A stretch of DNA of 32,000 nucleotides from an uncultured Hyphomonas sp. (GCA_964351695.1 CAYGPE010000001.1:85106-117105), one strand, 5' to 3'; shown: positions 2,744-28,222, numbered from the stretch's first letter. The notes: generated by a model not told the origin, from the letters alone. Made by a program: numbers and translations.

Positions 2744-3457
2744 TTATTGCAGGGCGTTTTTCACCTTGGCTACATGTGTGCTTATTTCAGAAACCGGGCT
2801 TGGAGTTGAGGCTGCAAGTGGGCCATGGTCTGGCCAAAGTTTTAGCAACTGCTCGAGTGATGCCATGAGGGGTTCAGAGCCTGCTGAATCCACATCACTG
2901 GCGATGCTCAAGGCGACCACCGTGAAGCCATAGGCGTCTTGATATTCGCCTGGGTCGGTGATCTTTCCGTCGACAACACCGATCTGATATTCCTCTAACA
3001 CCGTGTCCATGAGGTAGTCGATGATTTCGGCTGGATCACCGCCTGCATTGGCGCGCATCAGAGCCATGTTGGCTTCGGCTGCGGCGAGTTGAGGCTCGAT
3101 TTCGGCAGCAGGAAGGCCTTCATCCAGCGCGTCGGATACGGCGATGAAGAGGTCTTGTTCAAACCCAAGTGCACTTAGTCCAGCGCGCTCGGCTTCATGT
3201 GTCTCCGAGACGGGGTGTAGCAGATGCTTGGCGGCCTGCTCAGGGGCACCCGCGCGATACAAGGCCAGCCCCGCTTCGACATGCCCGGACATGAAGGCAA
3301 CGCGCTTCTCAACTGGAAGCATACTCATCATGTGGCCCGAGTTTTCGGAGGTTTCGACGCTTTTAGGGGCCACTTCAGGCGCAATACATGCCGAAATCGG
3401 CAAAAGCGTCAGGCTGGTTACGGTCGCAAGTTTCGCGATAGTTGAAAATTTCAGCAT
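2744..3457 (-). CDS. Hypothetical lipoprotein of unknown function
   Basis: ATG at 3457 with AGGGGG 5 nt upstream. The N-terminus 'MLKFSTIAKLATVTSLTLLPISAC' has a signal peptide and a lipobox Cys. The track start at 3520 is a TTG extension. I recognise no family. Confidence 0.55.
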   Translation of the reverse strand: MLKFSTIAKLATVTSLTLLPISACIAPEVAPKSVETSENSGHMMSMLPVEKRVAFMSGHVEAGLALYRAGAPEQAAKHLLHPVSETHEAERAGLSALGFEQDLFIAVSDALDEGLPAAEIEPQLAAAEANMALMRANAGGDPAEIIDYLMDTVLEEYQIGVVDGKITDPGEYQDAYGFTVVALSIASDVDSAGSEPLMASLEQLLKLWPDHGPLAASTPSPVSEISTHVAKVKNALQ

Positions 3458-3537
3458 GCATGCCCCCTTAAACGAAACTGCAAGAACACTAACCCGCGTG
3501 CCACACTTTGGCAGCCGCAAAAATACTTAGTATGCGA

Positions 3538-7361: not shown

Positions 7362-7892
7362 ATGGCACAGGCCAATACAAATTCAATTGCAGCTGTCTTG
7401 TCTCTGCTCGTGCGCGTGCTGTTTTGGCTCGCAATCATTGTCGGCGGTATTGGTTTCCTGATCTTCGGGGCAGGTTTGCTGGGTAGCTTAAATGGCGGTG
7501 CATTGAAACTGCCCATGATGGAAGCGCTCGCAGAAGGTGTATCGCCGGGGCGTTTGGCCATTGGGCTTGTGGGAATTGTTATTTTTGCAGCTGGTATTGC
7601 CTATGTCTGTAGTCAGTTAAGCCGGATTCTATCGACACTGGCCGAAGGTGATCCGTTTGTGCCTGAGAATGGACCGCGTCTATTGCGAATTGCTGTAGCT
7701 ATTGCGCTCATCGAGATCATCCGTACTGCGGCGACTTTGATTATCGCCGCGACAGTCGACCTCGGTGAAGAGATGGTCGCCAATATCAATATCAACCTTG
7801 CAGTGTGGGGCGCGGTCGTCGTGATCTTCGTTCTGGCGCAAGTTTTTCGTGAGGGCACGCGCCTTCGCGAAGAAGAAAAAATGACGATTTAG
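7362..7892 (+). CDS. DUF2975-like multi-pass membrane protein
   Basis: Four hydrophobic helices, 'GDPFVPENGPRLLRIA', and a C-terminal 'FREGTRLREEEKMTI' tail, as I recall for DUF2975. A YozG-like HTH gene follows 15 nt downstream, which is the usual pairing. Confidence 0.6.
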   Translation: MAQANTNSIAAVLSLLVRVLFWLAIIVGGIGFLIFGAGLLGSLNGGALKLPMMEALAEGVSPGRLAIGLVGIVIFAAGIAYVCSQLSRILSTLAEGDPFVPENGPRLLRIAVAIALIEIIRTAATLIIAATVDLGEEMVANININLAVWGAVVVIFVLAQVFREGTRLREEEKMTI

Positions 7893-7907: not shown

Positions 7908-8141
7908 ATGTCTATCCGTGTAACCCTCGACCGTGTTCTGCTCGATAAGCGTATGTCGTTGACTGAGCTTTCTGAGCGTGTGGGCGTTACCCTCGCCAAT
8001 CTTTCTATTCTCAAGACCGGAAAAGCCAAAGCGGTGCGGTTTTCAACACTGGAAGCCCTTTGTCGTGAGCTGGACTGCCAACCGGGCGATATATTGGAAT
8101 TTGAAACGCCAAAGTCTGAGGCGAAAAGCGAAGCGGCCTAG
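7908..8141 (+). CDS. XRE-family (YozG-like) HTH transcriptional regulator
   Basis: 'LDRVLLDKRMSLTELSERVGVTLANLSILKTGKAKAVRFSTLEALCRELDCQPGDILEF'. Confidence 0.8.
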   Translation: MSIRVTLDRVLLDKRMSLTELSERVGVTLANLSILKTGKAKAVRFSTLEALCRELDCQPGDILEFETPKSEAKSEAA

Positions 8142-8854
8142 AGCTTAACCCAGCCGAGCGCCATCATTGCCAATAGCAATGCACTCACGACGGCTAGCAG
8201 TGAGGGCAGCATCAATTCGATGAGTGTGAATTGCGGAAAATTTCGCTTCTTGGCGACATGGATTTGCCATTCGCGCGTAAACGGGGCGAACTCGAAATCT
8301 GCCTCCATTTCCCCAATGACTTCATACTTTGTCGCGCTTAAGCGGCGGGCGGCAATCACCATTGAAAGCCACAGAATCGCGTTCAGAAACGCTAAAAATA
8401 GCGCTGCTATGGTCACAGCCTGAATGGGAAATGTGTCATTGTCAGAATTGATCACGAACGAGATCGACACAAAGATCGCCACAAACACTGAAAAGTAGAA
8501 TCGGTTAAGGACTTGCCGGCGGTCTATGCCGTGTTCAGCGCTATCCACCATGACTTTGTAGAGTTCAAACCGGCGATCATAATCATATTCCCCCATGGTC
8601 TCGTCGCGGGCGACAACATAGGCGCCAATCGTGCCATTTGACACCGGCGCGCTCGTTCCGGCTGCATCTTGCGCAGCCATGAAGGCGCTGACCTTATCTA
8701 GCGTGCGGGTCTGAAATGTCTTGTCTGGATCAAATAGCCGTTCGCAGAAATCAGCTTGGCCAAGGGCTTCTTCACCGAACGTTTCGGCATTCATATTGTG
8801 CCGATCAAGGAAAGACCGGACTTGCTGTCTAAACGGATCGAGGAAAGTAGACAT
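8138..8854 (-). CDS. Membrane protein with an N-terminal soluble (possibly HTH-like) domain and a C-terminal 3-TM module; partner gene of the upstream TIR protein
   Basis: The ATG at 8854 is 9 nt after the TIR gene stop. Predicted TM helices lie at aa 117-135, 144-169 and 209-235. Motifs are 'FELYKVMVDSAEHGIDRRQVLNRFYF' before TM1 and 'LSATKYEVIGEMEADFEFAPFTREW' in the cytoplasmic loop. The stop overlaps the convergent XRE stop (CTAG, 8138-8141). Confidence 0.75.
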   Translation of the reverse strand: MSTFLDPFRQQVRSFLDRHNMNAETFGEEALGQADFCERLFDPDKTFQTRTLDKVSAFMAAQDAAGTSAPVSNGTIGAYVVARDETMGEYDYDRRFELYKVMVDSAEHGIDRRQVLNRFYFSVFVAIFVSISFVINSDNDTFPIQAVTIAALFLAFLNAILWLSMVIAARRLSATKYEVIGEMEADFEFAPFTREWQIHVAKKRNFPQFTLIELMLPSLLAVVSALLLAMMALGWVKL

Positions 8855-8863
8855 TTCGGTGAT

Positions 8864-10402
8864 CTACTTTTCCGACAAATCAGATGTGGCGAGCCTGATG
8901 GTGAACACCTTGTCGCGGACGTTGCGATCGATCCGCGCCCGGTTCGCAGCGCGGTGGTCATCCGGGTCTCGTCCCCATGCGCCGCCGCGCAAAACTCTGC
9001 GTCCGCAGTCGCCGTTTGTCCGCGCCGTTCCATCAACTGGGGCGGCCGTATATGAATTGACGTAGCAGTCTTGCACCCACTCACGCGCGTTCACCAACAT
9101 GCCTTTTACGCCAAATGGGTTTGCAGGCAGGCTGGCGGCGTCTCGCGGGGCGCTCATTGGCGCAATCGAGCGGTCAAAGCTGGCACCCCACCAATAGGGT
9201 GTGTTGGTTCCAGCGCGCGCAGCATATTCCCATTCTGCCTCAGTCGGCAGGCGATAGGCGCGTCCGGATTTGGCTGAGAGCCAGCTCGTATAAGACTGCG
9301 CATCTTGCCACGAAATGCTCAGCACAGGCAGGCCACCACGGCCAAAACCATGATCAGATGGTGAATATGAGCAGCCGCCATCGGCGATGCAGGCGTCCCA
9401 CTGATCAAATGTCACCTCTGTCTCACTGATCGCGAAAGGCTGGACCGTGACGGTGTGCAGTGGGCCTTCATTTCCGGTGCGGCCAAGCTCCGTATCGGGT
9501 GATCCCATCTGGAATGCCCCGCCAGGCAGGGCGATCATTGTTGGGCATGTATCACAATCTGCAAACTGGCCGGGCGTGGTGGTCGTCTCGGTCTCTGCGG
9601 TTTCGGTACTGTCTTGATCACCGCCGCCTGACATGGCTTGGATTACGAAATAGCCAGCCACGAGTGATAGCGCGGCGGCGCCAATGATCAAAGGCAATTT
9701 GCTCGAAGAAGACTTTTCATCCTGGCTTGTTATCGGCTTTTTGGGCGCAGGTTTTGGGGTGGGTTTAGTCGCGGGCGCTGCCACAGGTGCCTCTGGTTCG
9801 GGCGTCAACGCAGGTGTTAAAGAGGTGAGGCGATTGCGCGCAAGGTCCGAGAAATGGCCCTCAGGATAGCGTTTCAGGTAGGCCTCATAGTCAGACGCCT
9901 CCGTGCTGGCCTGTATTGTGGTCCAGAACGTATTCTCCATGGTGAGGTCAGAGGTTGGATCAGATGGAACCGTCTCAACCGCCATAGGCTCGGCGGGCGC
10001 CGCACCACCATGTGAGGCCACAGCAGATTTGATATCTGCGATAAAACGCTGCCAGCGCGCTTCTGTACGGTCGCCGTCCCAGCCGATAAGGTCAGCTGAC
10101 TGGGTTAGCTCGAACATAATCGGGCGTTCGGCATCATCGATCATCGCGGGAATGAGCGTAGATGTACGTTCGCCAAGTGTCGCCTCTGTGCGCACCCATT
10201 TTGATTTTACCGAAACCTCTGACCACAACACGACAACCACACTGGCGTCGCGTAGCATGCCCTCGGTCACTTCGTCATAGGTCTGTCCAGCCTTGAGGAT
10301 TTTATCCCACCAGACGGTGAGCCCCTCATCCTCAAGTGCGTGTGCGATCATCTCGGCGCGCGGACGATCCGCGCGGCTATAGGATAGAAAAATAACCGCC
10401 AA
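8864..10402 (-). CDS. TIR-domain membrane protein with a C-terminal extracytoplasmic FGE-sulfatase (SUMF1/EgtB/PvdO)-like domain
   Basis: TTG start at 10402 preceded by GAGGGAGAGGG. It opens with 'VIFLSYSRAD'. The next Met (aa 18) would delete the first TIR strand. A single TM follows, then 'RLPTEAEWEYAARAG' and 'RVLRGGAW' (FGE-sulfatase fold). Confidence 0.85.
   Translation of the reverse strand: MAVIFLSYSRADRPRAEMIAHALEDEGLTVWWDKILKAGQTYDEVTEGMLRDASVVVVLWSEVSVKSKWVRTEATLGERTSTLIPAMIDDAERPIMFELTQSADLIGWDGDRTEARWQRFIADIKSAVASHGGAAPAEPMAVETVPSDPTSDLTMENTFWTTIQASTEASDYEAYLKRYPEGHFSDLARNRLTSLTPALTPEPEAPVAAPATKPTPKPAPKKPITSQDEKSSSSKLPLIIGAAALSLVAGYFVIQAMSGGGDQDSTETAETETTTTPGQFADCDTCPTMIALPGGAFQMGSPDTELGRTGNEGPLHTVTVQPFAISETEVTFDQWDACIADGGCSYSPSDHGFGRGGLPVLSISWQDAQSYTSWLSAKSGRAYRLPTEAEWEYAARAGTNTPYWWGASFDRSIAPMSAPRDAASLPANPFGVKGMLVNAREWVQDCYVNSYTAAPVDGTARTNGDCGRRVLRGGAWGRDPDDHRAANRARIDRNVRDKVFTIRLATSDLSEK
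8888..9571 (-). other. FGE-sulfatase-like domain (aa 278-505), predicted periplasmic
   Basis: 'MIALPGGAFQMGS', 'LPVLSISWQDAQSYTSWLS', 'YRLPTEAEWEYAARAG' and 'RVLRGGAWGRDPDDHRAANR'. Six Cys occur here and none in aa 1-235. Confidence 0.75.
9635..9697 (-). other. Single transmembrane helix (aa 236-256)
   Basis: 'LPLIIGAAALSLVAGYFVIQA'. The Lys-rich 'KPAPKKP...K' segment lies before it and the acidic 'GGGDQDSTETAETE' segment after it, which indicates N-in/C-out. Confidence 0.75.
10073..10399 (-). other. TIR domain (aa 2-110) of the 512-aa protein
   Basis: 'VIFLSYSRADRPRAEMIAHALEDEGLTVWWD...VVVVLWSEVSVKSKWVRTEATLG'. Glu73 is at the position of the TIR catalytic Glu. Confidence 0.8.
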
Positions 10403-10506
10403 AACCCTCTCCCTCTCGCAAGGTTTTGCCCATAAAGGGCTGTTTTGAAGGACTATTACATACTATTGCGCAAGAACAAATGACTATCGGTGTGTCACTA
10501 GTCTAC

Positions 10507-16972: not shown

Positions 16973-18601
16973 CTATTCTGCAATTGGCGCGGGCGGGCAA
17001 GTAGCCACTGAGGACAGCAACAACCGCTTTGGCGCGAAGGTCAGACGTTTTTCAGTCCGTGCGACTTCGGTGCAATCTGGTGGCGGCGCTGTAAAGGCCA
17101 GTGTGTAACCAGCCCAGATATGCCGGCTGTCTGGCCGGTCCGACGTGCGACCGTCCCATGGTGCGAGCGGGTTTCTGACATAAGGGTGTACGAGATGAAC
17201 CGGATAGCCGATTAGCGAGGTATAGGTTCCCGCGGGGCTGGCAGTGACGTGCGTATCGACGGCGGCGGCAGCCCGGCGCAGGGACAGGCCCCAATAGTCT
17301 GTCTCAAAGGTTTCAGCATCGACATAGAGGCGCGAAATCTCGTTAAAATATATATAGTTATACGGAAACATTCGTACATTATCGACGATGAATACTGCGA
17401 GGCTTGCCGTCATGGCGAGGCGGGCGGTTTTATGCAGGGCAGGCCTGTTTGTCTTGATTTTGTGGATCGCGGCGACCAGCATGCAGACCAGTACCGGGAC
17501 GATAAACAAGATATGGCGCAGGCCGTCATAGACAGCCGAATTGCGCAAGATGATCAGCGCTAAGGGTACAATGACAGCGGCGGTAATTACCCGCTCCGCA
17601 GCCGTTCCGCGCAGCGCCAGATAAAGCGCAGCAGGCAGGGCGCCGAGCATCAGGACGAGGGGCCAACGCGCGCTGATCCACAGTATGAGATAGGACAGGA
17701 CTGACCAGTCATCTTTTTGCGGGGACAGGCAACTACCCGCACTTATCACGCACCCAACCCATTCATGCTGGCTCATATAGCTGATTGAAAGGATAACAAA
17801 TCGTACCGGTTCAAGCCAAGCTGGAGGCGTGATGATATAAATACCGACCAAGGTGACCAGGCTGCCAATCATCAGTGCGCGAAGGCGCGGCAGGCGCATA
17901 TCCGCCTGGAGGGCTACAAAGAGTAGTGCACTCCATTGTACAATCAGGAGCGGTGCCCCAAGAAGTTTAATTGAAGCTGATCCAATTGTCGCCGCGACGA
18001 CAAACCAAAGACCGCGATAAAAGTCGGCTTTTTCGTTGCCAAGCGCGATTATGGCGCCGTAAAGCGCTAGCACATAGAAAAAGGCTTGGGCCAGGTCTTT
18101 GTAATTAAACAATGCGTGGCCAAACCAGACTGGGTATAGCGCCAGAAACCCTGCGCCGATTAAGGCCATATTGACGTCCGCAGTCAGGCGGAGCAGTAAT
18201 TTATAGACGATGATGACTGATCCAGCGGCCCAGAGTAGGGCATTGAAATGTAGCGCCCAGCGGAACACAGCTTCATCTTGCGCGGCGTCTAAATCAAAAA
18301 AACTGTTCGCAAATCCGGTGACGATCTCTGCCGGCAAGACCGGCAGCAGGCCATAATACTCCATATTGAAATAGATATCTTCGAAATCTTTATTGAAATC
18401 ACCGCTAAGAACGGCACCAGCGAAGCGGCGTATCTCATCGAAACCATAGCGGTGAATATCCTGGTCCCATGTCTCGCCTACTAGCATTTGTGCGGCGGAA
18501 AAGACGATGAGGAGACAGGCCATTAGGAGCGCCTGTGTCGCTTTAGCGCGCGCGGCTATAAAGGTTTCGGCGAGGTGAAATAGGCGAGCGATCTGATCCA
18601 T
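16973..18601 (-). CDS. Polytopic membrane protein, GT-C-type (ArnT/PMT, GT39/83-like) glycosyltransferase candidate
   Basis: At least 10 hydrophobic helices, an acidic first loop ('FDEIRRF', 'DFEDIYF') and a C-terminal soluble domain with 'ETDYWG'. The family call is from memory. Confidence 0.5.
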   Translation of the reverse strand: MDQIARLFHLAETFIAARAKATQALLMACLLIVFSAAQMLVGETWDQDIHRYGFDEIRRFAGAVLSGDFNKDFEDIYFNMEYYGLLPVLPAEIVTGFANSFFDLDAAQDEAVFRWALHFNALLWAAGSVIIVYKLLLRLTADVNMALIGAGFLALYPVWFGHALFNYKDLAQAFFYVLALYGAIIALGNEKADFYRGLWFVVAATIGSASIKLLGAPLLIVQWSALLFVALQADMRLPRLRALMIGSLVTLVGIYIITPPAWLEPVRFVILSISYMSQHEWVGCVISAGSCLSPQKDDWSVLSYLILWISARWPLVLMLGALPAALYLALRGTAAERVITAAVIVPLALIILRNSAVYDGLRHILFIVPVLVCMLVAAIHKIKTNRPALHKTARLAMTASLAVFIVDNVRMFPYNYIYFNEISRLYVDAETFETDYWGLSLRRAAAAVDTHVTASPAGTYTSLIGYPVHLVHPYVRNPLAPWDGRTSDRPDSRHIWAGYTLAFTAPPPDCTEVARTEKRLTFAPKRLLLSSVATCPPAPIAE

Positions 18602-19625: not shown

Positions 19626-20426
19626 TTACAGTTCAAGGTCTTTTGCGGTTCGACCCAAAAGACTATGCGCGATGGCAATTGCATCAATGATCGGCTGAGC
19701 CGATGGCGTGGTCGAAATCAGGGTGCGCTGGCTACGAATTGCTTCGCGTACAGCCTCATCGCGCATCACAATACCGGCAAGCGCTGGGCGGAAACCAAGG
19801 AAGGTTTGGCAGGCACGGGCAATCGCTTCGAATGTCCGTTGACCTCCAGCGCGAGTCTCAGCTTGGTTAATAGCAACCACCTGTTCGACGTTTGGCGCGT
19901 AACCTTTCAGAACCTTGATGAAGGCATAAGCGTCCGTCATCGAGGTCGGTTCGTCGGTCACAACCATAACGACTTTATCAGCGGCGCGGGCTAGCCGCAT
20001 ACAATTGGCCTCAATCCCGGCGCCAAGGTCGACGATAACCTGATCATATTGAAGAGCTAGCGCAGAGAGACCTGCGGCGAGACGAGCCACTTCTTCTGAT
20101 GTCAGTTCAGCAAGTGCGCCAGACCCAGACCGGCCTGGCAGTACGTCAAAACCACCGTCGCCTGAACCGCCATCAACGGGCGTTACGGCGTCTTCAAGCT
20201 CGACCCATCCGGCGACAACAGCGGCCAAATCGGTCTCGGGCGCAATGCCCAACTGGACATCGACATTGGCAAGGCCAAGGTCACCATCAACCAGCAGTGT
20301 GCGCTTACCGGCCTGCGCGAAAGCACTGGCCAGTGTAATGGACATGAATGTCTTGCCGACGCCGCCTTTACCAGATCCGACGGCGATAATGGAGGCCGGT
20401 TCAACGCGGCGTGGAGGGGCCTGCAT
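19626..20426 (-). CDS. flhG: MinD/ParA-family ATPase FlhG (FleN/MotR-like flagellar number/placement regulator)
   Basis: Deviant Walker A 'GSGKGGVGKT' followed by 'LLVDGDLGLANVD'. I prefer the ATG at 20426 (MQAPP; AGGAG 6 nt upstream) over the track start at 20462. Confidence 0.8.
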   Translation of the reverse strand: MQAPPRRVEPASIIAVGSGKGGVGKTFMSITLASAFAQAGKRTLLVDGDLGLANVDVQLGIAPETDLAAVVAGWVELEDAVTPVDGGSGDGGFDVLPGRSGSGALAELTSEEVARLAAGLSALALQYDQVIVDLGAGIEANCMRLARAADKVVMVVTDEPTSMTDAYAFIKVLKGYAPNVEQVVAINQAETRAGGQRTFEAIARACQTFLGFRPALAGIVMRDEAVREAIRSQRTLISTTPSAQPIIDAIAIAHSLLGRTAKDLEL

Positions 20427-20463
20427 CGGTCGCTCCTGCGATTTTGGAAGTAGGAAGCTCATT

Positions 20464-21468
20464 CTAAGCAGCGCCTCTCAAAGCAACATGGGCTGGCGCG
20501 TCTTCCGTGAGAAGATGCGCAAGCCGCGAGGGTGTCGCGGGGACGAGACCACCGCCAATGAATGGCGTGACCGCAAGATGGGCGAAAGAAATTTTGGCCG
20601 CAGCAAGAGCTGAGACGATGCCGCCACGTCGGCGCGTGACATCCAGCTTGGTGATGATCGCTCGCCGGATACCGCAGCGCGCAAAGGCGCGAGCTGCTTC
20701 GGCTTGATCTTCAGGGTGGCCTTCGGCGCTAATCACGAGCACAGGCTCGGCATCAATTACGGCGATCAAGTCTTGTAAACTCGCCATATCATCTTGATCG
20801 AACGGCACAATCGCGGGCAAGTCGATGACACAACGTTTTTCGTCTTCGCGTATCTGCCTGAGCAGCGTGAACAGATCATCCGGATTTGATACGGCGCGAA
20901 CCTGATCTTGTTCGCGCTCCAGATATGCCGCCAATTGCGCGCCACCTGCGGTCGCGTCGAGGTCCGCCGCAACAGGCAAGATCTCAGAATTGGCAACTGC
21001 GGCCCGGCGCGTCAGTTTTGCAGCTGTCGCCGTGCGACCATGGCCAGGTGCGCCGACAAGCAAGACGTCTCGGGTCGGTCGCGCCAAGATCGGATCACAT
21101 GTGATCATGTTTTCCAGCGCCGCGGTTATGGAGGCGGTGGCATCCATATCGTGATAGCCGCTGGCGCTTCCTGCATCAGCGGCGCGATCAGCAAAGCGTT
21201 GCGGCGCACCGTGCCAGAGTAGGGCATCGCGAACACGGTTGCGCATTGGATTTTCAACAAGGCGCGGTGTCGGCGCTGCGCCAAGGCGTGATAGGATGCG
21301 CGATTCACTCGGCACCATGCCGCCGCCAAGTTTGTCGGTAGCCGCACGAACTTCAACACCGCCCGGAACTTCGCGCTCAGACAGGATGACAGCATCGTCC
21401 CCCATCTCGGCGAAAATCATGGCTTTTGCCGTCTCAATCGACTCAGCGGCAAACATTTTCATTCGCAT
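20464..21468 (-). CDS. flhF: SRP-type GTPase-like flagellar placement protein FlhF with degenerate G motifs
   Basis: 'MKMFAAESIETAKAMIFAEMGDDAVILSEREV' is the FlhF B-domain opening. The G domain reads 'LLVGAPGHGRTATAAKL', 'VIDLPA' and 'ITKLDV'. I prefer the ATG at 21468 (GGAG 9 nt upstream). Confidence 0.7.
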   Translation of the reverse strand: MRMKMFAAESIETAKAMIFAEMGDDAVILSEREVPGGVEVRAATDKLGGGMVPSESRILSRLGAAPTPRLVENPMRNRVRDALLWHGAPQRFADRAADAGSASGYHDMDATASITAALENMITCDPILARPTRDVLLVGAPGHGRTATAAKLTRRAAVANSEILPVAADLDATAGGAQLAAYLEREQDQVRAVSNPDDLFTLLRQIREDEKRCVIDLPAIVPFDQDDMASLQDLIAVIDAEPVLVISAEGHPEDQAEAARAFARCGIRRAIITKLDVTRRRGGIVSALAAAKISFAHLAVTPFIGGGLVPATPSRLAHLLTEDAPAHVALRGAA

Positions 21469-21565
21469 ATGATCACACTCCACTATTTGGGAACAGTGTT
21501 GCGATGTAATAGTTAACAGAGTCTGTCGATTTGTTAGCTTTTTGCGGCCAGACTTGGCTCGGCGG

Positions 21566-21894: not shown

Positions 21895-22272
21895 TTATGA
21901 ACGGCGCTCACTTTGTGTGAATAATTCTCCTTGCCCATCAATGAGCGTTCCAGCAATGCGGCGAATACTCTCAAGCGCAGTTTGGCGGTCATGCTCGTCA
22001 ATCGCGGCTTTTTCAAGATAAGCCGCAAGTTCCAAAATCGAGCCGAGTGCCACACGCAATTCGCGGCTGATCGCTTCTGCTCGTTCACTGTGCTCATGCA
22101 GCGTTTCATCGCGTATCATCTCGGCGGTAGCCTCACGCGCTTCAGCCAGCAGGGCAGCCAGATCACTGGCTGTCATATTGATCATGTCCTGCGTGTCAGC
22201 CGTTTCAGGCACGGGGGCGAAGAAATCAGCCGAGAAAGCGAACGGCTTTAGTTTTTCAATGCGCCGCTTCAT
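21895..22272 (-). CDS. Flagellar-operon protein, FlbE/FliH-like; call based mainly on position
   Basis: A 125-aa helical acidic protein. Its start overlaps the fliG stop (ATGA at 22269-22272). It occupies the slot between fliG and fliN that flbE holds in Caulobacter. Confidence 0.4.
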   Translation of the reverse strand: MKRRIEKLKPFAFSADFFAPVPETADTQDMINMTASDLAALLAEAREATAEMIRDETLHEHSERAEAISRELRVALGSILELAAYLEKAAIDEHDRQTALESIRRIAGTLIDGQGELFTQSERRS

Positions 22273-23192
22273 TCGATGAATTCCTCATCATTTGCGTCAT
22301 CTGGCAAAATGTCGCCGCGTTTAACAAGCGTTCGGGCAAGCCCAATAATCTCCATGCGCGCCGCCTCGATATCAGCGCGCCGTATTGGGCCGGAAGCTTC
22401 AATCTCGCTGCGCAATAACTCGCCTGCGCGGCTTGTCATATTCTTGAACAGGGCATCGCTGGTTGTGGCCTTGGCGCCTTTCAGAGCGGTAACCAGAACG
22501 GCGCGCTCTGTGCTCGCGAGCAAGGTCTGAATACTGGCGGGGTTCAGGGTCGCCAGATCATCGAACGTAAACATCAGGGCGCGGATGCGTTCGCCAGCGC
22601 CAGGCTCTGCAGTATCGAGCGCCGCCAAGAGACCATGTTCAGATTGCGTGTTCAGGCTGTCAAAGATGCGCGCCACATGCTCTTCGCCATGATGGCTAGT
22701 CTTGGTTGTTCCGGCTTGAAGCGCCGCGCGCAAGGCTGTTTCAATCACAGCAAGTGCCGCTGGACGAACACTGCCCAAATGCATCACTCGTTGCAGAGCT
22801 TCAGTCGCAAGACTTTGCGGCAAGGCGCGCACGGCGGTTGCAGCTGTCTCGGGCGTCAGCCGCGATAGGATAACAGCGATGATTTGGGGGCTTTCGCCGC
22901 CAATTGCGCTGGCTATTGCTGCACCTTGTGCTGGCATTAAGCCATTCCAGAAGTTTGCCCTCGCAACCGCTTGAGGTGCCGCTTCGGACATATCGCGTAC
23001 ATAAGCTCGAGCTGCTTCGGTTTCCGTTTCGGCATTCTCGGGCAAAGCGTCCATTGCGCTTGTGAGTTGCTGCGCTTCGGCAGGAGTCAAAGTCGACCAA
23101 ACGGCGTTGGCTTGCGCACCAAGCGCACGCATTAAAGCAGCGCTGCGTTGAAGCCCGGTTCTGGGCTCGGATTGTAGGGCAGGCAGGCTCAT
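22269..23192 (-). CDS. fliG: Flagellar motor switch protein FliG
   Basis: 'ESPQIIAVILSRL' (EHPQ-like), 'MFTFDDLATL', 'LVTALKGA' and 'RAGELLRSEIEASGPIRRADIEAARMEII'. I prefer the ATG at 23192, which overlaps the upstream stop as ATGA and has GGGGAG upstream. Confidence 0.85.
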   Translation of the reverse strand: MSLPALQSEPRTGLQRSAALMRALGAQANAVWSTLTPAEAQQLTSAMDALPENAETETEAARAYVRDMSEAAPQAVARANFWNGLMPAQGAAIASAIGGESPQIIAVILSRLTPETAATAVRALPQSLATEALQRVMHLGSVRPAALAVIETALRAALQAGTTKTSHHGEEHVARIFDSLNTQSEHGLLAALDTAEPGAGERIRALMFTFDDLATLNPASIQTLLASTERAVLVTALKGAKATTSDALFKNMTSRAGELLRSEIEASGPIRRADIEAARMEIIGLARTLVKRGDILPDDANDEEFIE

Positions 23193-23836
23193 CTCTGTGT
23201 CTCCCCGCTCGCGCCGATCCACGACCTTATGAGTTGTGCGGTTCCATCAGGGTCAGAGGCGGCGAGTTTTGCCGCGCGATCAATCTCAGCATCCTGCACA
23301 GGTGCAGTGCCCGCTGTTACTAGTCGTAATCCCTCATTACGCGCGGCGCGCTGGGATGTGTTTGGTTCGGCGCGTTGTGTGACAGGTTGCTGAGGCGGAA
23401 CGATCAGCATTGTTGTTAAGACGAGGCAAAGTAAGCTTAGGCTGATCAATTCTGTGAGTTGAAGCGGTGACAAAGTTGGCTGCGTTCCAGCCGCAAACGC
23501 AATCGGTGTAATCGTTATTTTGCTGGCGGCATCCCCAAAGGTGTTGGCGGTGATGGTTTCGACTGTTTCAACCAGTCCGGGTTGGAGCCGGGATTGATCA
23601 AGCAAGACAATAATCGTACGCTCTGCTTCACCGGATACCGAAACGCGGACGGCGCCCTCGCCAATGACGGGTTCGAGAATATTGGTTAGGGATTGTTCGG
23701 CGGCATTTGTGAAGGTTGCCTTCGGTGGGCCATCGACGAACAGGTCAAACGCGCGCAAACAAAGCACCCCCGAAGCCACAAAAAGGGCGACGAGGGCGAG
23801 TAGACGCGTGGTGGGTATTTTATTGGCACTTGCCAT
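23189..23836 (-). CDS. Short FliF-like protein: two TM helices, one RBM-like periplasmic domain and a FliF-type C-terminal tail
   Basis: TM1 is 'LLALVALFVASGVLCL'. The periplasmic segment 'LTNILEPVIGEGAVRVSVSGEAERTIIVLLD' resembles a ring-building motif. TM2 is 'LISLSLLCLVLTTMLIV'. The tail 'SDPDGTAQLIRSWI' resembles the FliG-binding end of FliF. It is only 215 aa, compared with about 530-560 aa for FliF. Confidence 0.55.
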   Translation of the reverse strand: MASANKIPTTRLLALVALFVASGVLCLRAFDLFVDGPPKATFTNAAEQSLTNILEPVIGEGAVRVSVSGEAERTIIVLLDQSRLQPGLVETVETITANTFGDAASKITITPIAFAAGTQPTLSPLQLTELISLSLLCLVLTTMLIVPPQQPVTQRAEPNTSQRAARNEGLRLVTAGTAPVQDAEIDRAAKLAASDPDGTAQLIRSWIGASGETQR

Positions 23837-24433: not shown

Positions 24434-24745
24434 TCAAAGCTCAGACCATAGTCCTCGCGGTACGATCTCACTTATAATACGGTCCCAGACGCTGGTTTTA
24501 GAAATTTCGCAAACATTGTCGCCGATGGCAAAGCCGAAGGATTTCAGCCGGGGAGACGCGTCAAAGTCTTCTTTCGTAAGTATAGCGCGGGGGTAATGGC
24601 TTAATAGCTCGCCGGTCTCAGGATCCGTCTCGGTGATTTTGAACGCCAGTAGCGCCTCGCAAGCGCGATCAACATGCTTGCTCTGGTTCGCAAACGTAGC
24701 GCCCTTTTTAGCGGCTCGCTTCCGCGAGCTATCGGACGTCAGCGC
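24434..24745 (-). other. C-terminal ~100-aa domain of unknown function (aa 1160-1262)
   Basis: It follows a basic linker 'SSRKRAAKKG'. It holds the only two Cys residues of the roughly 1000-aa extracytoplasmic part (C1187 and C1238). Confidence 0.4.
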
Positions 24746-27700
24746 GCTAATGTCGAAAACGACAACGCCTTCGCCTGATAGCAATAGGGACTGACCGTCA
24801 GGCGCAAAATCAGCTAGGGAGCCTAAGGCGCTAGAACCGTCGCTGAGCGGGGTCTCGACAATGTTTTCAGTGGTATCGCGGGCTAGCATGATGGGCCCTT
24901 CCGGCCTATTCGCGAAGAAGAATCTCCCGTCCGGAGAGATATCCGATGCTGTGACACTTGGTCTGTCGTGAACTTTTTCCAGAATCCATGGCCCAGCAAT
25001 GGTTTTGCGGTAGAGCGGGGTTTCGAGAGGGTCTTTCACACTCTGCAGCAAAATCTGTTTTCCGTCTGCGGAGAAGTGTGCCGTTTTGAATTTGGTTTTA
25101 ACTCCCGTGCTTTCGCGCACCCATGCCCCGTCCGCTCCGCGCGTCCAACGATAAGCTAAACCGTCGATTCCCCAATTACGCCCGGTGATAAAGCTTTGGC
25201 TGTCTGGCGCGATGGCGATGCCTCCGAGTTTGTTTTCCACAGCATGAGTAGCCGCGGTCCAATTATTATCTTTGTCGCGGCTCCACACGGTGACGATACC
25301 AGATTCGTTATATGTCCATTCTGGATTTTCCCAGTCGGGATTGTGATGTCCAATGCTAACGAAGTAGCTCTCATCTGGGGCGAACTTTGCTGAAGTAAGT
25401 TCGAATATTCCGGTCTGCAGTGTCTGATATGGCCACAGGCCATCACTGGTTTCTTGCCAGATTTTCAATGTGTTTGAACGTTCTCCTTCGTCAACAACAT
25501 TTTCAATCGTTAGAATTGATTTTCCGCTTGGTGCGAGCTCGATCATTTTTATACTCGGGGGATTAGTCTCGAGTGCACTATCAAGCGCGAGTTTTTGCGT
25601 TTTTTCCCAAGGTCCGTCCGGTGCGCGGTCCCAGATTTGATATTCAGTTTTGTTAGCGCGCGTCAAAAAGCGATCACCAGCATCCGAAATACCGACAAAT
25701 TCTCCTCCAAGATGCTCTTTCACCGCGGCGCTTGTCCAGTCACCAAAATTGACCCATTCGCCTGCCGCGTTGCGCTCCCACAAGGACAGATATGAGTTGA
25801 ATGAACCCCTTCGACTAGCACCCTTTCGGCTGGCAACAATCTTGTTGCCGCCATCGATAAATTTCGCGTCGTAGCCTGCACGTGAAACGATTATCTCGGT
25901 GCGTGGTGGGTGTTCGAGATGAGCAGTGTCCCAGATACGAATTTCACCCGTATCGTCACGTGAAAACAATTGCGTTCCATCAGCCGTAAATTCGAGCCAG
26001 TTAATCGCGCTTTGGTGGCCGACAAATGGGATGACTTCTTTTAAAATGGGATGCTTCTGCCAATCTAATTTGCCAGTGATTTCGTAGACCAGAACCTGAC
26101 CGCCCCAAAATCCGAGCGCGAGCAATTTGTCATCGTCAGACCAGGCATAGCTGCGAATGTGATCGAACTTACTACCATTTAGGCCATTAACACTATTGAT
26201 CGCGCTTGCCTTGGTACTGAGCTTCCGGCTCTTCCACTGATTATATGGAGCTCGGTACACCAGATGAGCCACACCAGGTTTCTCGTAGCCGTCTCGCTCT
26301 TTCGTAAACGAATTGTAGACGAGCATGTCGCCGCTATTGGAAAAGACCGGGAATGTACGCGTGAAGGGGGGCCCTGTGACATCACCAAATCCATTTGATT
26401 GCCATTGTCCGGCTTCGTCTTTTTCCCAGATGTCGACTTTTTGACCTTTTGACCGTGTGGCAAAAACCCCCGGTTTCGGGGAGAAGAAGACGCCGCGCGT
26501 ATGCGTGTTGATCACTTGTGATGACCATGTGCCCGCTTCGGTCCGCTCAAATACTATGAAACTGCCCCAGGTGTCAGTCCCTGAGCCCAGAACGGGCCCC
26601 TCGACTTCCACGATGATCAACTGGCCTGCCGGTTCAACATAGACTTTAGTGATCCGCACAAAGGCCTCGTTCCACATCGTAGGTGGGGGCGGGTTGTTTG
26701 TTGTATCAGCTTGCTCTTCTGGAGCGTCAGTAATGGGCGCTCCAGAAGCTGGCTCTGGCTCTAAGGTTTCTTCTGTTTGAAGATCATAGGCAAGCTCCTG
26801 CATCTCCCACGCTCCGGTCTCGCTGCGCACCCAAAGGTTGGCGAGTTTGATCCGGTTTTCTTCAAAAAGCGGTCGGCCAAGCGGGAGTGCGACATGATTT
26901 AGCCAAGGCATGTGGCGGCGTTCATCAAGATGAGTTTGGTAAAATGCTTCCCACTGAGCGCTCGTGCGGGCAGCGAGTTTTTCATGGTCTGCAATTTTTT
27001 CGCCCGACCACTCCCAAGCCTCATCATGAGTCCAAAGCTCATAGTGATCATCGAACCTCATGAGTATTGTCGACTGATCGCCTTCGGAGTGCACAGTTAT
27101 TCTGTCTTCATGGAGGACGCCGCCTTCAATTATCGTGTCGCGCCTCCAGCTACCATCAGATTGCTTGCGCCACTGAGTGAGCACGTGGTCATTACCAGGA
27201 GTTGTGAGTGTGTTGCCATCTGGCGCCAAGATGGGTTGAGGGCCGCTGCCAGCGTTTAAAATCCCGCTCAACCGATTGTGCTGAATGGCGCGCGCCAGAC
27301 CGAGCTGCGATCCCGGCGCCGCAGGGCTAAGCGACGTATCTGTTGCCGCAAGGACGGAGAATTTGAGGGCGCGATCATATCGCCACTGTTCAAAAGCGAT
27401 GGAGGCTTCTGGCGCGATAACGCGTGATGTGGCCAGCGAAACATTTCGTGCGCCCTGGATCGTTGAGTAAGCCCCCCAGGCGGTGAGCGCCATCGCGGCC
27501 AGCCCGACAACAGCCGTGACCCTGCGCCAGAAGCGCTGACGACGCAGATCTGCCGCGACCCGTTTTCGGCTTTCCTCCAGATAAGCAAAAAACAGTTCGC
27601 CCGGTGCGTCTTCGTTTGAGGGGCGGCGGGCCGACCAGGCCTCAGCTTCAACAAGCGCGCCTTCGCGCAGCAACAAACCATTAGGGCGCGCTTTGCGATC

Positions 27701-28222
27701 CCATTCGGAGATGCGGTCGAACAGGCGGCGGCCCTCGCGGTGCCAACTGACATCTGTATTCAGGGCAAGCTCAGCCGCATCCATGGCGGCGTCAAAGCCG
27801 GGCCCGCCCTCTGAAAAGTCGATTTGAACATTCAGAGCGGCGAGGCGGGGCGGGGCCTTGGCAAAATCAATGTCCTGAACTTTGACAGCGATAATGCGCT
27901 TTCCAAGGGCCCGAGCATAGGCAATTTCCTCGTCGCACACGACGCTGCCAGATGAGCCGGGAGATACCAGAAACAGCATCACATCGCAGGCGGCAATCAT
28001 CTCCTGAATACGCACCCACCATTCGTCTTCAGCTGAAATCCCGCCTGAAATCTGATGGGGGTCATAGGTTGCCTGATCAAAGTCTGGTTCGAAGCCGCGC
28101 GCCCTCAGGGCGTCAGCGATTTGACGCATGAAGGCTTCGTTTTGGCGTGAATAAGAAAGAAACACCCTCAATCGATCGGTGTTATCCCCAGCATTTTCCT
28201 CAACGACTTGTTGCTCAGTCAT
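24434..28222 (-). CDS. Giant TIR-domain membrane protein: N-terminal TIR, helical linker, one TM, about 14 WD40/PD40-like beta-propeller blades, and a C-terminal ~100-aa unknown domain
   Basis: ATG at 28222. 'RVFLSYSRQNEAFMRQIADAL...VMLFLVSPGSSGSVVCDEEIAYA' is the TIR domain. The TM is 'VTAVVGLAAMALTAWGAYSTI'. Recurrent '[FI][AS]PDG' and '[ILV]W.[RKE]...G.W' blade motifs follow. Confidence 0.85.
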   Translation of the reverse strand: MTEQQVVEENAGDNTDRLRVFLSYSRQNEAFMRQIADALRARGFEPDFDQATYDPHQISGGISAEDEWWVRIQEMIAACDVMLFLVSPGSSGSVVCDEEIAYARALGKRIIAVKVQDIDFAKAPPRLAALNVQIDFSEGGPGFDAAMDAAELALNTDVSWHREGRRLFDRISEWDRKARPNGLLLREGALVEAEAWSARRPSNEDAPGELFFAYLEESRKRVAADLRRQRFWRRVTAVVGLAAMALTAWGAYSTIQGARNVSLATSRVIAPEASIAFEQWRYDRALKFSVLAATDTSLSPAAPGSQLGLARAIQHNRLSGILNAGSGPQPILAPDGNTLTTPGNDHVLTQWRKQSDGSWRRDTIIEGGVLHEDRITVHSEGDQSTILMRFDDHYELWTHDEAWEWSGEKIADHEKLAARTSAQWEAFYQTHLDERRHMPWLNHVALPLGRPLFEENRIKLANLWVRSETGAWEMQELAYDLQTEETLEPEPASGAPITDAPEEQADTTNNPPPPTMWNEAFVRITKVYVEPAGQLIIVEVEGPVLGSGTDTWGSFIVFERTEAGTWSSQVINTHTRGVFFSPKPGVFATRSKGQKVDIWEKDEAGQWQSNGFGDVTGPPFTRTFPVFSNSGDMLVYNSFTKERDGYEKPGVAHLVYRAPYNQWKSRKLSTKASAINSVNGLNGSKFDHIRSYAWSDDDKLLALGFWGGQVLVYEITGKLDWQKHPILKEVIPFVGHQSAINWLEFTADGTQLFSRDDTGEIRIWDTAHLEHPPRTEIIVSRAGYDAKFIDGGNKIVASRKGASRRGSFNSYLSLWERNAAGEWVNFGDWTSAAVKEHLGGEFVGISDAGDRFLTRANKTEYQIWDRAPDGPWEKTQKLALDSALETNPPSIKMIELAPSGKSILTIENVVDEGERSNTLKIWQETSDGLWPYQTLQTGIFELTSAKFAPDESYFVSIGHHNPDWENPEWTYNESGIVTVWSRDKDNNWTAATHAVENKLGGIAIAPDSQSFITGRNWGIDGLAYRWTRGADGAWVRESTGVKTKFKTAHFSADGKQILLQSVKDPLETPLYRKTIAGPWILEKVHDRPSVTASDISPDGRFFFANRPEGPIMLARDTTENIVETPLSDGSSALGSLADFAPDGQSLLLSGEGVVVFDISALTSDSSRKRAAKKGATFANQSKHVDRACEALLAFKITETDPETGELLSHYPRAILTKEDFDASPRLKSFGFAIGDNVCEISKTSVWDRIISEIVPRGLWSEL
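24986..27172 (-). repeat. Protein-level tandem array of about 14 beta-propeller blade repeats (aa 351-1079)
   Basis: Blade-end motifs at aa 351, 397, 464, 558, 599, 656, 713, 764, 815, 864, 922, 980, 1026 and 1071. Examples are 'IWEKDEAGQW', 'LWERNAAGEW', 'IWDRAPDGPW', 'IWQETSDGLW' and 'RWTRGADGAW'. Spacing is 41-94 aa. Confidence 0.7.
27458..27520 (-). other. Single transmembrane helix (aa 235-255)
   Basis: It is preceded by 'RKRVAADLRRQRFWRR', a positive-inside signal that predicts N-in/C-out. Confidence 0.75.
27872..28171 (-). other. TIR domain (aa 18-117) of the 1262-aa protein
   Basis: It opens with 'FLSYSR'. E98/E99 in 'VVCDEEIAYA' sit at the catalytic-Glu position. Confidence 0.8.

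Follow-up and report, generated by a model that had tools for sequence, protein, structure and literature searches.

A candidate Thoeris-like module pairing a predicted membrane-spanning TIR protein with an 8xMP membrane protein in an uncultured Hyphomonas sp.

Introduction

What would a bacterial TIR domain respond to if the domain fused to it lay on the far side of the inner membrane, and what is the role of the small membrane protein encoded directly behind it? This question is raised by a two-gene locus in a 32,000-nucleotide (nt) stretch of DNA from an uncultured Hyphomonas sp. (GCA_964351695.1 CAYGPE010000001.1:85106-117105; hereafter the window, meaning the whole stretch that was analysed). 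A gene for a 512-amino-acid (aa) protein, in which an N-terminal TIR domain is joined through a transmembrane (TM) helix to a domain of the formylglycine-generating enzyme (FGE)-sulfatase fold, is followed there by a gene for a 238-aa protein of the 8xMP family. An earlier note, made from the sequence alone, had described the two as an operon in which an extracytoplasmic cue activates the TIR domain and the membrane partner serves as effector or relay. We compared both proteins with profile, structure and literature resources and followed the pair across genomes and metagenomes. The reading that we favour, at a probability of about 0.5, is that of a Thoeris-like two-gene TIR signalling module in which the sensor spans the inner membrane and the membrane effectors are interchangeable.

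The gene pair and the architecture of the TIR protein

Both open reading frames (ORFs) lie on the minus strand and are separated by exactly 9 nt, as the earlier note had it. Each of them has many conserved homologues, which marks both as real genes and not as chance ORFs. The features of the pair are as follows.

8864..10402, minus strand: gene of the TIR - helical hairpin - TM - PvdO/FGE-like protein, 512 aa, TTG start, end coordinate including the stop codon
10013..10402, minus strand: predicted cytoplasmic TIR domain, aa 1-130, with the TIR_2 match
10184..10186, minus strand: codon of Glu73, within 'SKWVRTEATL'
9812..9955, minus strand: conserved helical hairpin, predicted to be cytoplasmic, aa 150-197, 'ENTFW...YEAYLKRYPEGHFSDLARNRL'
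9641..9697, minus strand: single TM helix, aa 236-254, Kyte-Doolittle peak 2.24
8888..9577, minus strand: predicted periplasmic PvdO-like domain of the FGE-sulfatase fold, C-type-lectin-like, aa 276-505
8855..8863, minus strand: intergenic spacer of 9 nt, read directly as ATCACCGAA
8138..8854, minus strand: partner gene, 238 aa, ATG start, with a helix-turn-helix (HTH)-like N-terminal domain, a disordered linker and a three-TM 8xMP core
8660..8854, minus strand: N-terminal four-helix domain of the partner, aa 1-65, Xre/Cro-type HTH-like
8138..8593, minus strand: 8xMP core, aa 88-238, with an Arg-rich amphipathic helix, TM1, TM2, a basic cytoplasmic loop and TM3

The short spacer is consistent with co-transcription and translational coupling of the two genes. 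A GGAGAGGG-like ribosome-binding site was read just 5' of the TTG start of the 512-aa gene, and the start position agreed with that of homologues in the alignment.

The TIR_2-type N-terminus recognised in the earlier note was supported by Pfam (aa 4-111, E 1.6e-19, 71 bits against a cutoff of 28), and the profile of the region matched solved NADase TIRs, namely AbTIR (8g83, 7uwg, 7uxr) and PdTIR (3h16). Glu73 was invariant in an alignment of 30 homologues and, in alignments with AbTIR, PdTIR and related TIR structures, coincided with the Glu in their W-x-x-x-E motif. By profile match and this Glu, the protein carries an NADase-type TIR for which NADase activity is predicted. The domain was modelled by AlphaFold2 (AF2) with a predicted local distance difference test score (pLDDT) of about 80-94, and its mean column identity reached 77% over 13 diverse homologues, whole proteins being merely 53-70% identical.

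The TIR domain is followed by a helical module (aa 150-197) in which W160, Y175, L176, Y179, G182, A188 and R191 are invariant among the same 30 homologues. It was modelled as three helices with a pLDDT of 91-94, and no family was assigned to it in the Pfam scan. The single TM helix comes next, in the order that had been read from the sequence. The 30 residues before this helix hold five K/R and two D/E, the 27 after it no K/R and seven D/E, and the Cys residues of the protein occur solely at positions 283, 286, 338, 344, 446 and 466, all six of them invariant in homologues and all within the C-terminal domain. Because of the basic residues before the helix, the acidic ones after it and this confinement of Cys, an N-in orientation with the C-terminal domain in the oxidising periplasm is expected. 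The TIR domain and hairpin are thus predicted to be cytoplasmic and the FGE-fold domain periplasmic, in agreement with the topology first proposed.

The C-terminal domain was assigned to Pfam FGE-sulfatase (aa 286-494, E 1.5e-47, 163 bits against a cutoff of 23.3). Its closest relative in sequence is PvdO of Pseudomonas aeruginosa (5hha; 35% identity, phmmer E 2e-37, profile E 1.4e-56), onto which the AF2 model was superposed with a Foldseek E of 8.8e-24 and a TM score of 0.80. ToxD and true FGEs came after PvdO, the Foldseek matches to FGEs having E of about 1e-14 to 1e-15, and EgtB matches spanned only part of the domain. NCBI labels the family 'SUMF1/EgtB/PvdO family nonheme iron enzyme', and the best NCBIfam match was PvdO (NF051459) at 167 bits against an equivalog cutoff of 500; PvdO is therefore the closest homologue of this domain by sequence and not its equivalog. 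In human FGE the copper-binding Cys pair after the RGG[AS]W motif is C336/C341 (entries 2aft and 2afy are, by name, the C336S and C341S mutants). Alignments to FGE end at this motif, and direct reading of the segment after 'RGGAW' (RGGAWGRDPDDHRAANRA) revealed no Cys. The domain has the FGE/SUMF1 fold and is missing the catalytic Cys pair, as the earlier note had suspected. FGE or 'FGS' C-lectin-like domains have been proposed as non-enzymatic sensor or binding modules at the C-terminus of conflict proteins, some of them with TIR domains (PMC7159879; PMC10907252). Because the Cys pair is missing, the PvdO cutoff is missed and this precedent for binding modules exists, we treat the domain as a putative ligand-binding sensor. 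No siderophore, sulfatase or ergothioneine genes were found near the TIR-TM-FGE gene in the window.

The partner protein

The 238-aa partner, noted before as a three-TM protein, has hydrophobic helices at about 119-137, 149-167 and 214-232 by hydropathy and matched Pfam PF24838 (8xMP; aa 96-230, E 1.5e-21, 77.1 bits against a cutoff of 30). NCBI has given its homologue P0132 the name 'RipA family octameric membrane protein'. In the AF2 model (pLDDT 76.5) an N-terminal four-helix domain and a disordered linker lead into a long Arg-rich helix that continues into TM1, followed by TM2, a basic cytoplasmic loop and TM3. The core is highly conserved, its invariant residues including R95, R112, R113, R170, K176, R194, H199 and R204, with R94 and R171 kept in at least 90% of sequences; Y99, R113, W162 and E184 are invariant across the whole 8xMP family. 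No solved structure for the core was retrieved by sequence, profile or Foldseek searches of the PDB.

Conservation is lowest in the N-terminal domain, where F15 alone is nearly invariant. Foldseek placed this domain with C.Esp1396I and phage Cro/Xre regulators at probabilities of 0.9-1.0 and TM scores of 0.6-0.78, with E of at least 0.3 (non-significant), and the Pfam scan of the partner gave no HTH match.

The 8xMP family as a whole comprises about 1,950 representatives at 50% identity, mostly bare proteins of 140-190 aa. A 279-aa homologue (P0140) on a 1.7-kb JGI contig has a Phage_integrase domain annotated in the same product; this fusion is probably a gene-call artefact on a short contig, and it hints at a mobile-element neighbourhood. 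Literature searches returned no account of the 8xMP family.

Linkage of the two genes across genomes

The TIR-TM-FGE family is large, with more than 3,800 homologues, and 117 of the top 120 carry both TIR_2 and FGE-sulfatase. The HTH-8xMP subfamily to which the partner belongs is tiny (about 21 clusters at 90% identity among 5.8 billion proteins) and set apart from the remaining 8xMP family by its scores (270 bits vs at most 111). At every distinct locus of this subfamily with a readable contig (7/7: the window, L081, L083, L084, L088, L089 and L090; L082 is a second, shorter contig with the protein of L081), the HTH-8xMP gene lies directly 3' of a TIR-TM-FGE gene, at a spacing of -4 to +32 nt. 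The pair is found between or beside rph/rdgB (window and L081), accA (L083 and L090), metG/DinB (L088) and MCP/Gcw_chp (L089), and in the neighbourhood of an FAD-dependent oxidoreductase gene (L084). Since the flanking genes differ across at least five contexts, the TIR-TM-FGE/8xMP pair moves as a unit. The identities of the two proteins also rise and fall in parallel (r = 0.65 over 15 pairs).

A metagenome scan with the partner alignment gave no match. A genome-contig scan with the full-length alignment was discarded, as it was swamped by the generic FGE motif P[TS]EA[EQ]WEY and returned FGE-sulfatase genes of many phyla, none of them with 8xMP. TIR and FGE fusions were also found in Methylococcaceae, Bryobacteraceae, Cyanobacteria and Ca. 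Parabeggiatoa.

Several observations on individual family members were made alongside. At L090 (4492-5989) the TIR-FGE gene is present as two overlapping ORFs (352 + 155 aa) 5' of an intact 8xMP gene, being either a frameshifted pseudogene or an assembly error, and a tyrosine recombinase/integrase is encoded about 5 kb downstream. Some TIR-FGE fusions are soluble and have no detectable TM helix; these come from metagenome-assembled genomes (MAGs) of Methylococcaceae (L011, 5932-7110) and Bryobacteraceae (L061, 5166-6410), the latter having two tandem TIR-FGE genes, one with a hydrophobic segment and one without. As soluble and membrane forms both exist, the FGE-type sensor appears to be used on both sides of the membrane. 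In Candidatus Parabeggiatoa an ORF of at least 2054 aa (L021, 556-6717) has six tandem TIR-profile matches followed by an FGE-sulfatase domain. At the metagenome loci L149, L148, L175, L146, L152, L167 and L173, TIRs of the same clade (50-60% identical) are fused to TPR, FHA or AAA_16 (STAND-like) domains in place of TM-FGE, so that this TIR serves varied sensor domains as a shared output module at the N-terminus.

Alternative partners and other TIR-8xMP pairs

At four related loci (L086, L098, L099 and L103) the position of the 8xMP gene is taken by a gene for a DUF4231/SLATT_3 protein of 318-344 aa with four TM helices, 41-66 nt 3' of the TIR-TM-FGE gene and on the same strand (L086 7595-8548; L098 5584-6594; L103 5616-6647), both the DUF4231 and SLATT_3 matches being above Pfam thresholds. 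In a rough neighbour-joining tree of TIR-FGE proteins, made without bootstrap values, all partner-bearing proteins clustered together, and the window and L081, with 8xMP, were sister to L098/L099, with SLATT. The alternation of 8xMP and SLATT in the same slot indicates effector swapping. One trait of Thoeris-type systems, a TIR gene and a putative effector gene kept together in an operon, was found at all seven 8xMP loci, with SLATT in the slot at the four related ones.

An 8xMP gene was also found beside a different TIR. In a Pseudomonadales MAG (L096/L097), a ThsB_TIR gene (143 aa) lies 4 nt 5' of a 291-aa 8xMP gene (P0232; L096 4566-5876), and the two lie within an inovirus-like prophage, with a phage integrase gene and genes of inovirus type (Zot, secretin, DUF2523) on their flanks. 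This ThsB_TIR shares 39-47% identity with TIRs that Table S1 of Yirmiya et al. 2025 (doi 10.64898/2025.12.03.692087) lists beside a '3TM' putative effector, and the pair is a candidate prophage-borne 'TIR + 3TM' system of Thoeris type. The N-terminal extensions of the long 8xMP proteins P0232, P0256 and P0268 gave weak matches to ThsB profiles; a TIR-8xMP fusion in these proteins stays tentative and is not relied on here, the hhalign comparison with the TIR clade of the window being non-significant (0.4%).

Comparison with known systems

The earlier note had placed the pair outside the TIR systems it knew. This part did not hold, for the logic of the module appears to be that of Thoeris types II, V and VII, in which a TIR protein is coupled to a membrane effector; a membrane-spanning TIR protein with an extracytoplasmic sensor-like domain would set it apart. 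Type VII Thoeris consists of a ThsB TIR and a ThsH SLATT effector gated by TIR-made cyclic ADP-ribose (cADPR; Yirmiya et al. 2025, doi 10.64898/2025.12.03.692087). It shares with our pair the two-gene operon of a TIR followed by a small multi-TM effector, SLATT_3 itself being in the same slot at the four loci above, and differs in that here the TIR protein is predicted to cross the membrane and to carry its FGE-like domain in the periplasm, and that the partner in the window is 8xMP and not SLATT. In type V the effector ThsF (DUF2270) is a ring-forming three-TM protein gated by 3'cADPR through basic inter-protomer pockets (doi 10.64898/2025.12.03.692087). The partner resembles it in being a three-TM protein with basic cytoplasmic surfaces, of a family predicted to form ring-shaped homo-oligomers; however, 8xMP has no DUF2270 match, the partner in the window has an extra HTH-like N-terminal domain, and ThsB of type V is soluble and cytoplasmic.

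The same preprint lists in its Table S1, of which a part was available to us, an untested class of putative Thoeris effectors termed '3TM'. The identity of the ThsB_TIR beside P0232 to TIRs of this class suggests that '3TM' is probably the 8xMP family, as judged from TIR identities rather than effector sequences. The TIRs of this class are small soluble ThsB types, and the TIR motifs of the window were absent from that part of the table. In the searchable literature we found described neither a membrane-spanning, receptor-type bacterial TIR nor 8xMP as a TIR partner, though the '3TM' class probably overlaps the latter.

With PvdO, the closest protein in sequence and structure, the C-terminal domain shares a periplasmic location (predicted here) and the lack of the FGE catalytic Cys. 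PvdO, however, is a free periplasmic protein of a siderophore pathway, whereas here the domain is tethered through the TM helix to a cytoplasmic TIR and scores below the equivalog cutoff. The FGS/FGE domains of conflict systems and of targets of diversity-generating retroelements (Kaur et al. 2020, PMC7159879; Dore et al. 2024, PMC10907252) have a similar build, with a C-terminal FGE fold, N-terminal effectors including TIR and a proposed role in ligand binding. Those are mostly cytoplasmic and coupled to STAND or vWA-MoxR proteins or to the retroelements, whereas here neither an NTPase nor a retroelement is present and the C-terminus is conserved, not hypervariable. Animal Toll-like and IL-1 receptors likewise join a cytoplasmic TIR through one TM helix to a domain that binds ligand outside the cytoplasm. 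They differ in polarity (the TIR is N-terminal here), in having a scaffold TIR where ours is of the enzyme type with the catalytic Glu, and in an unrelated fold of the ectodomain. We draw the parallel as an analogy only, without evidence of common origin.

Proposed mechanism and alternative explanations

In the mechanism that we propose, an extracytoplasmic ligand would be bound by the periplasmic FGE-fold domain, upon which the receptors would cluster or re-orient and their cytoplasmic TIRs self-associate. The associated TIRs would cleave or cyclise NAD+, yielding an ADP-ribose-derived signal or a local loss of NAD+, and either the diffusible signal or direct contact would act on an 8xMP oligomer at its cytoplasmic face, which is rich in Arg/Lys. 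This oligomer would perturb the membrane, and the stressed or infected cell would stop growing or die. Close relatives would use the SLATT membrane effector in the 8xMP slot, and in most of the family, where an adjacent effector is lacking, the TIR may act alone as an NADase. The role of effector or relay given to the partner in the earlier note gains comparative support from the 7/7 linkage, the replacement by SLATT and the ThsB-8xMP pair.

A number of results weigh against this reading. The first is the rarity of the partner: among 33 TIR and FGE loci sampled from metagenomes without bias through a TIR-only profile, 28 had at least 800 nt downstream and none of these (0/28) had 8xMP, and an adjacent effector was absent at L085 (Hyphomonas sp. 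Mor2) and L087 (Marinicaulis). The TIR protein, accordingly, does not need the partner. The linkage is one-sided, the 8xMP subfamily being exclusive to TIR-TM-FGE genes and the TIR-TM-FGE protein being usually encoded alone, so that the 'two-gene operon' of the earlier note does not apply to the whole family. Neither is the wider 8xMP family a dedicated TIR effector, since members P0150 and P0143 occur in contexts without a TIR. The 'octameric' state comes from the family's name, and two routes by which 8xMP might have been tied to known effectors were rejected. As a diverged SLATT it gave no Pfam SLATT match and an hhalign probability of 3.4% against the SLATT partners; as a diverged DUF2270 (ThsF, PF10028), 0/61 8xMP family members matched at E up to 1. 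Of the defence resources, PADLOC returned weak TIR-domain matches (ThsB 1e-3), none for the partner and no curated defence model; ThcB4 scored 18 bits against a cutoff of 220 for the TIR protein, and the curated Thoeris models of PADLOC and NCBIfam were not matched. A tblastn search of phage and plasmid collections with the partner retrieved no phage or plasmid copy. The neighbours at the loci are housekeeping genes, in variable contexts, and together with the strong conservation of the TIR (77%) this is not the pattern of fast-evolving defence-island genes. A defence role of the pair is for these reasons no more than putative.

Among other explanations the one that survives best, though we consider it rather unlikely, is housekeeping signalling of the envelope or physiology, in which the PvdO-like domain would monitor a periplasmic molecule such as a siderophore-like metabolite or an envelope component, the TIR would adjust NAD+ or make a second messenger and 8xMP would tune a membrane or envelope process. 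It fits the great size and good conservation of the family, the mostly chromosomal location of its genes (in Hyphomonadaceae and other marine Alphaproteobacteria), the highly conserved TIR, the housekeeping neighbours, the lack of phage or plasmid copies in the search and the best structural relative, PvdO, which is a periplasmic pyoverdine-maturation protein. NCBI also names the 8xMP family after RipA, and Francisella RipA interacts with LpxA and is linked to envelope homeostasis (PMC4322802; PMC12444477), but the tie between 8xMP and Francisella RipA is one of database name only. The occurrence of the pair in at least five unrelated contexts among proteins 50-70% identical suggests instead a mobile accessory cassette. 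The slot, moreover, is swapped with SLATT, a cell-killing effector class, and a parallel ThsB-8xMP pair is found beside an integrase in a prophage.

We regard it as unlikely that the TIR-TM-FGE protein is a self-contained sensor and effector that depletes NAD+, with 8xMP as an accessory, be it an oligomerisation scaffold, a regulator or antitoxin-like brake, or a localisation factor acting through the HTH-like domain. Most family members do have no adjacent partner, the same TIR clade serves as the N-terminal output of single-protein sensors (TPR, FHA, AAA_16), and standalone TIRs are regarded as NAD+-depleting effectors and were excluded by Yirmiya et al. (doi 10.64898/2025.12.03.692087). A scaffold would also fit the apparent fusion of some 8xMP proteins to TIR-like N-terminal domains, but these domains are barely TIR-like (hhalign 0.4%). 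The replacement of 8xMP by SLATT in sister lineages favours an equivalent effector over a specific scaffold, and 8xMP has conserved basic surfaces on its cytoplasmic side that are similar to the pockets for nucleotide signals described in ThsF.

The partner might also be a membrane-tethered transcription factor, whose 8xMP ring would be shifted by the TIR output such that the Xre-like HTH binds or releases DNA and a regulon is turned on. The Cro/Xre-like fold of aa 1-65 (Foldseek probability 0.9-1.0) speaks for it and it is compatible with the 'relay' option raised before, but it appears quite improbable with fold-match E of at least 0.3, an N-terminal domain that is the least conserved part and has no Pfam HTH, and SLATT and TIR-linked 8xMP relatives that have no HTH.

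That the C-terminal domain is an active periplasmic enzyme of PvdO-, EgtB- or FGE-like oxidative chemistry, with the TIR as a mere regulatory or scaffold appendage, is suggested by the NCBI family label and the best NCBIfam match, PvdO dihydropyoverdine dehydrogenase, yet it is highly improbable in view of the missing FGE Cys pair, the 167 bits vs 500 for PvdO, the partial EgtB matches, the lack of siderophore, sulfatase or ergothioneine genes nearby and the soluble cytoplasmic TIR-FGE versions (L011, L061), which fit a binding module.

Genomic surroundings of the pair

The window is alphaproteobacterial, with the gene order grpE-hrcA-acyltransferase-rph-[insert]-rdgB-hemW, and the closest homologues of the 512-aa protein are in Hyphomonadaceae. 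Two cassettes make up the insert between rph and rdgB: the pair of TIR and 8xMP genes, and a DUF2975 + HTH_26 pair convergent with it.

10403..10506, minus strand: spacer of 104 nt from rph, upstream on the same strand, to the TIR gene, with a purine-rich ribosome-binding site
7908..8141, plus strand: HTH_26 Cro/C1-type regulator gene, convergent with the 8xMP gene and overlapping its end by 4 nt
7362..7892, plus strand: DUF2975 membrane protein gene

No consensus promoter was detected in the 104-nt spacer, and the promoter and terminator scan was uninformative, sites being no more numerous than in shuffled sequence. The DUF2975 + HTH_26 pair was considered as a part of the module and rejected, as it stands beside the TIR/8xMP pair only in the window and L081 and is absent in the other five contexts; it probably represents a cassette independent of that pair, within the shared rph-rdgB insertion.

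A second TIR protein, of 1262 aa, is encoded in the window at 24434..28222 (minus strand); it combines a TIR_2 domain at the N-terminus (E 2.2e-16) with WD40 beta-propeller repeats. Its gene adjoins flagellar and positioning genes, namely FliG (22269..23222), SRP54/FlhF-like (20464..21483) and MinD/ParA-like (19626..20462). As the TIR HMM of the 512-aa protein gave no match to it, its TIR belongs to another clade. Two further ORFs on the minus strand, at 16973..18601 (542 aa) and 2744..3520 (258 aa), had no Pfam match at E up to 1e-5.

Significance

The profile searches proposed in the earlier note supported both the TIR and the FGE-sulfatase folds. Our analysis added that the partner belongs to the named family PF24838, that it has an HTH-like N-terminal domain, and that most relatives of the TIR protein have no partner while some have SLATT. 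In its boldest form, which we regard as possible yet doubtful, the Thoeris-like reading would make the pair a bacterial functional analogue of a Toll-like receptor, in which the PvdO-like ectodomain senses a cue beyond the cytoplasm, for example an adsorbing phage, an envelope fragment or a secreted metabolite, and the enzymatic TIR makes an NAD+-derived signal that gates 8xMP or SLATT. This would be the first periplasm-triggered bacterial TIR immune or stress pathway, with 8xMP as a new effector family.

In the Thoeris preprint, the ThsB proteins that were tested reacted to infection of the cell by phage (doi 10.64898/2025.12.03.692087), and a sensor facing outside the cytoplasm would be unusual for bacterial TIR systems. 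If the periplasmic sensor is real, TIR signalling in bacteria can serve to report what happens at the cell surface or in the envelope, with the topological logic of animal Toll-like and IL-1 receptors. The module would then provide a first function for the TIR-TM-FGE proteins, of which there are thousands of clusters, and for the 8xMP/RipA-type three-TM proteins, and it would offer a natural and directly testable case of effector swapping between 8xMP and SLATT.

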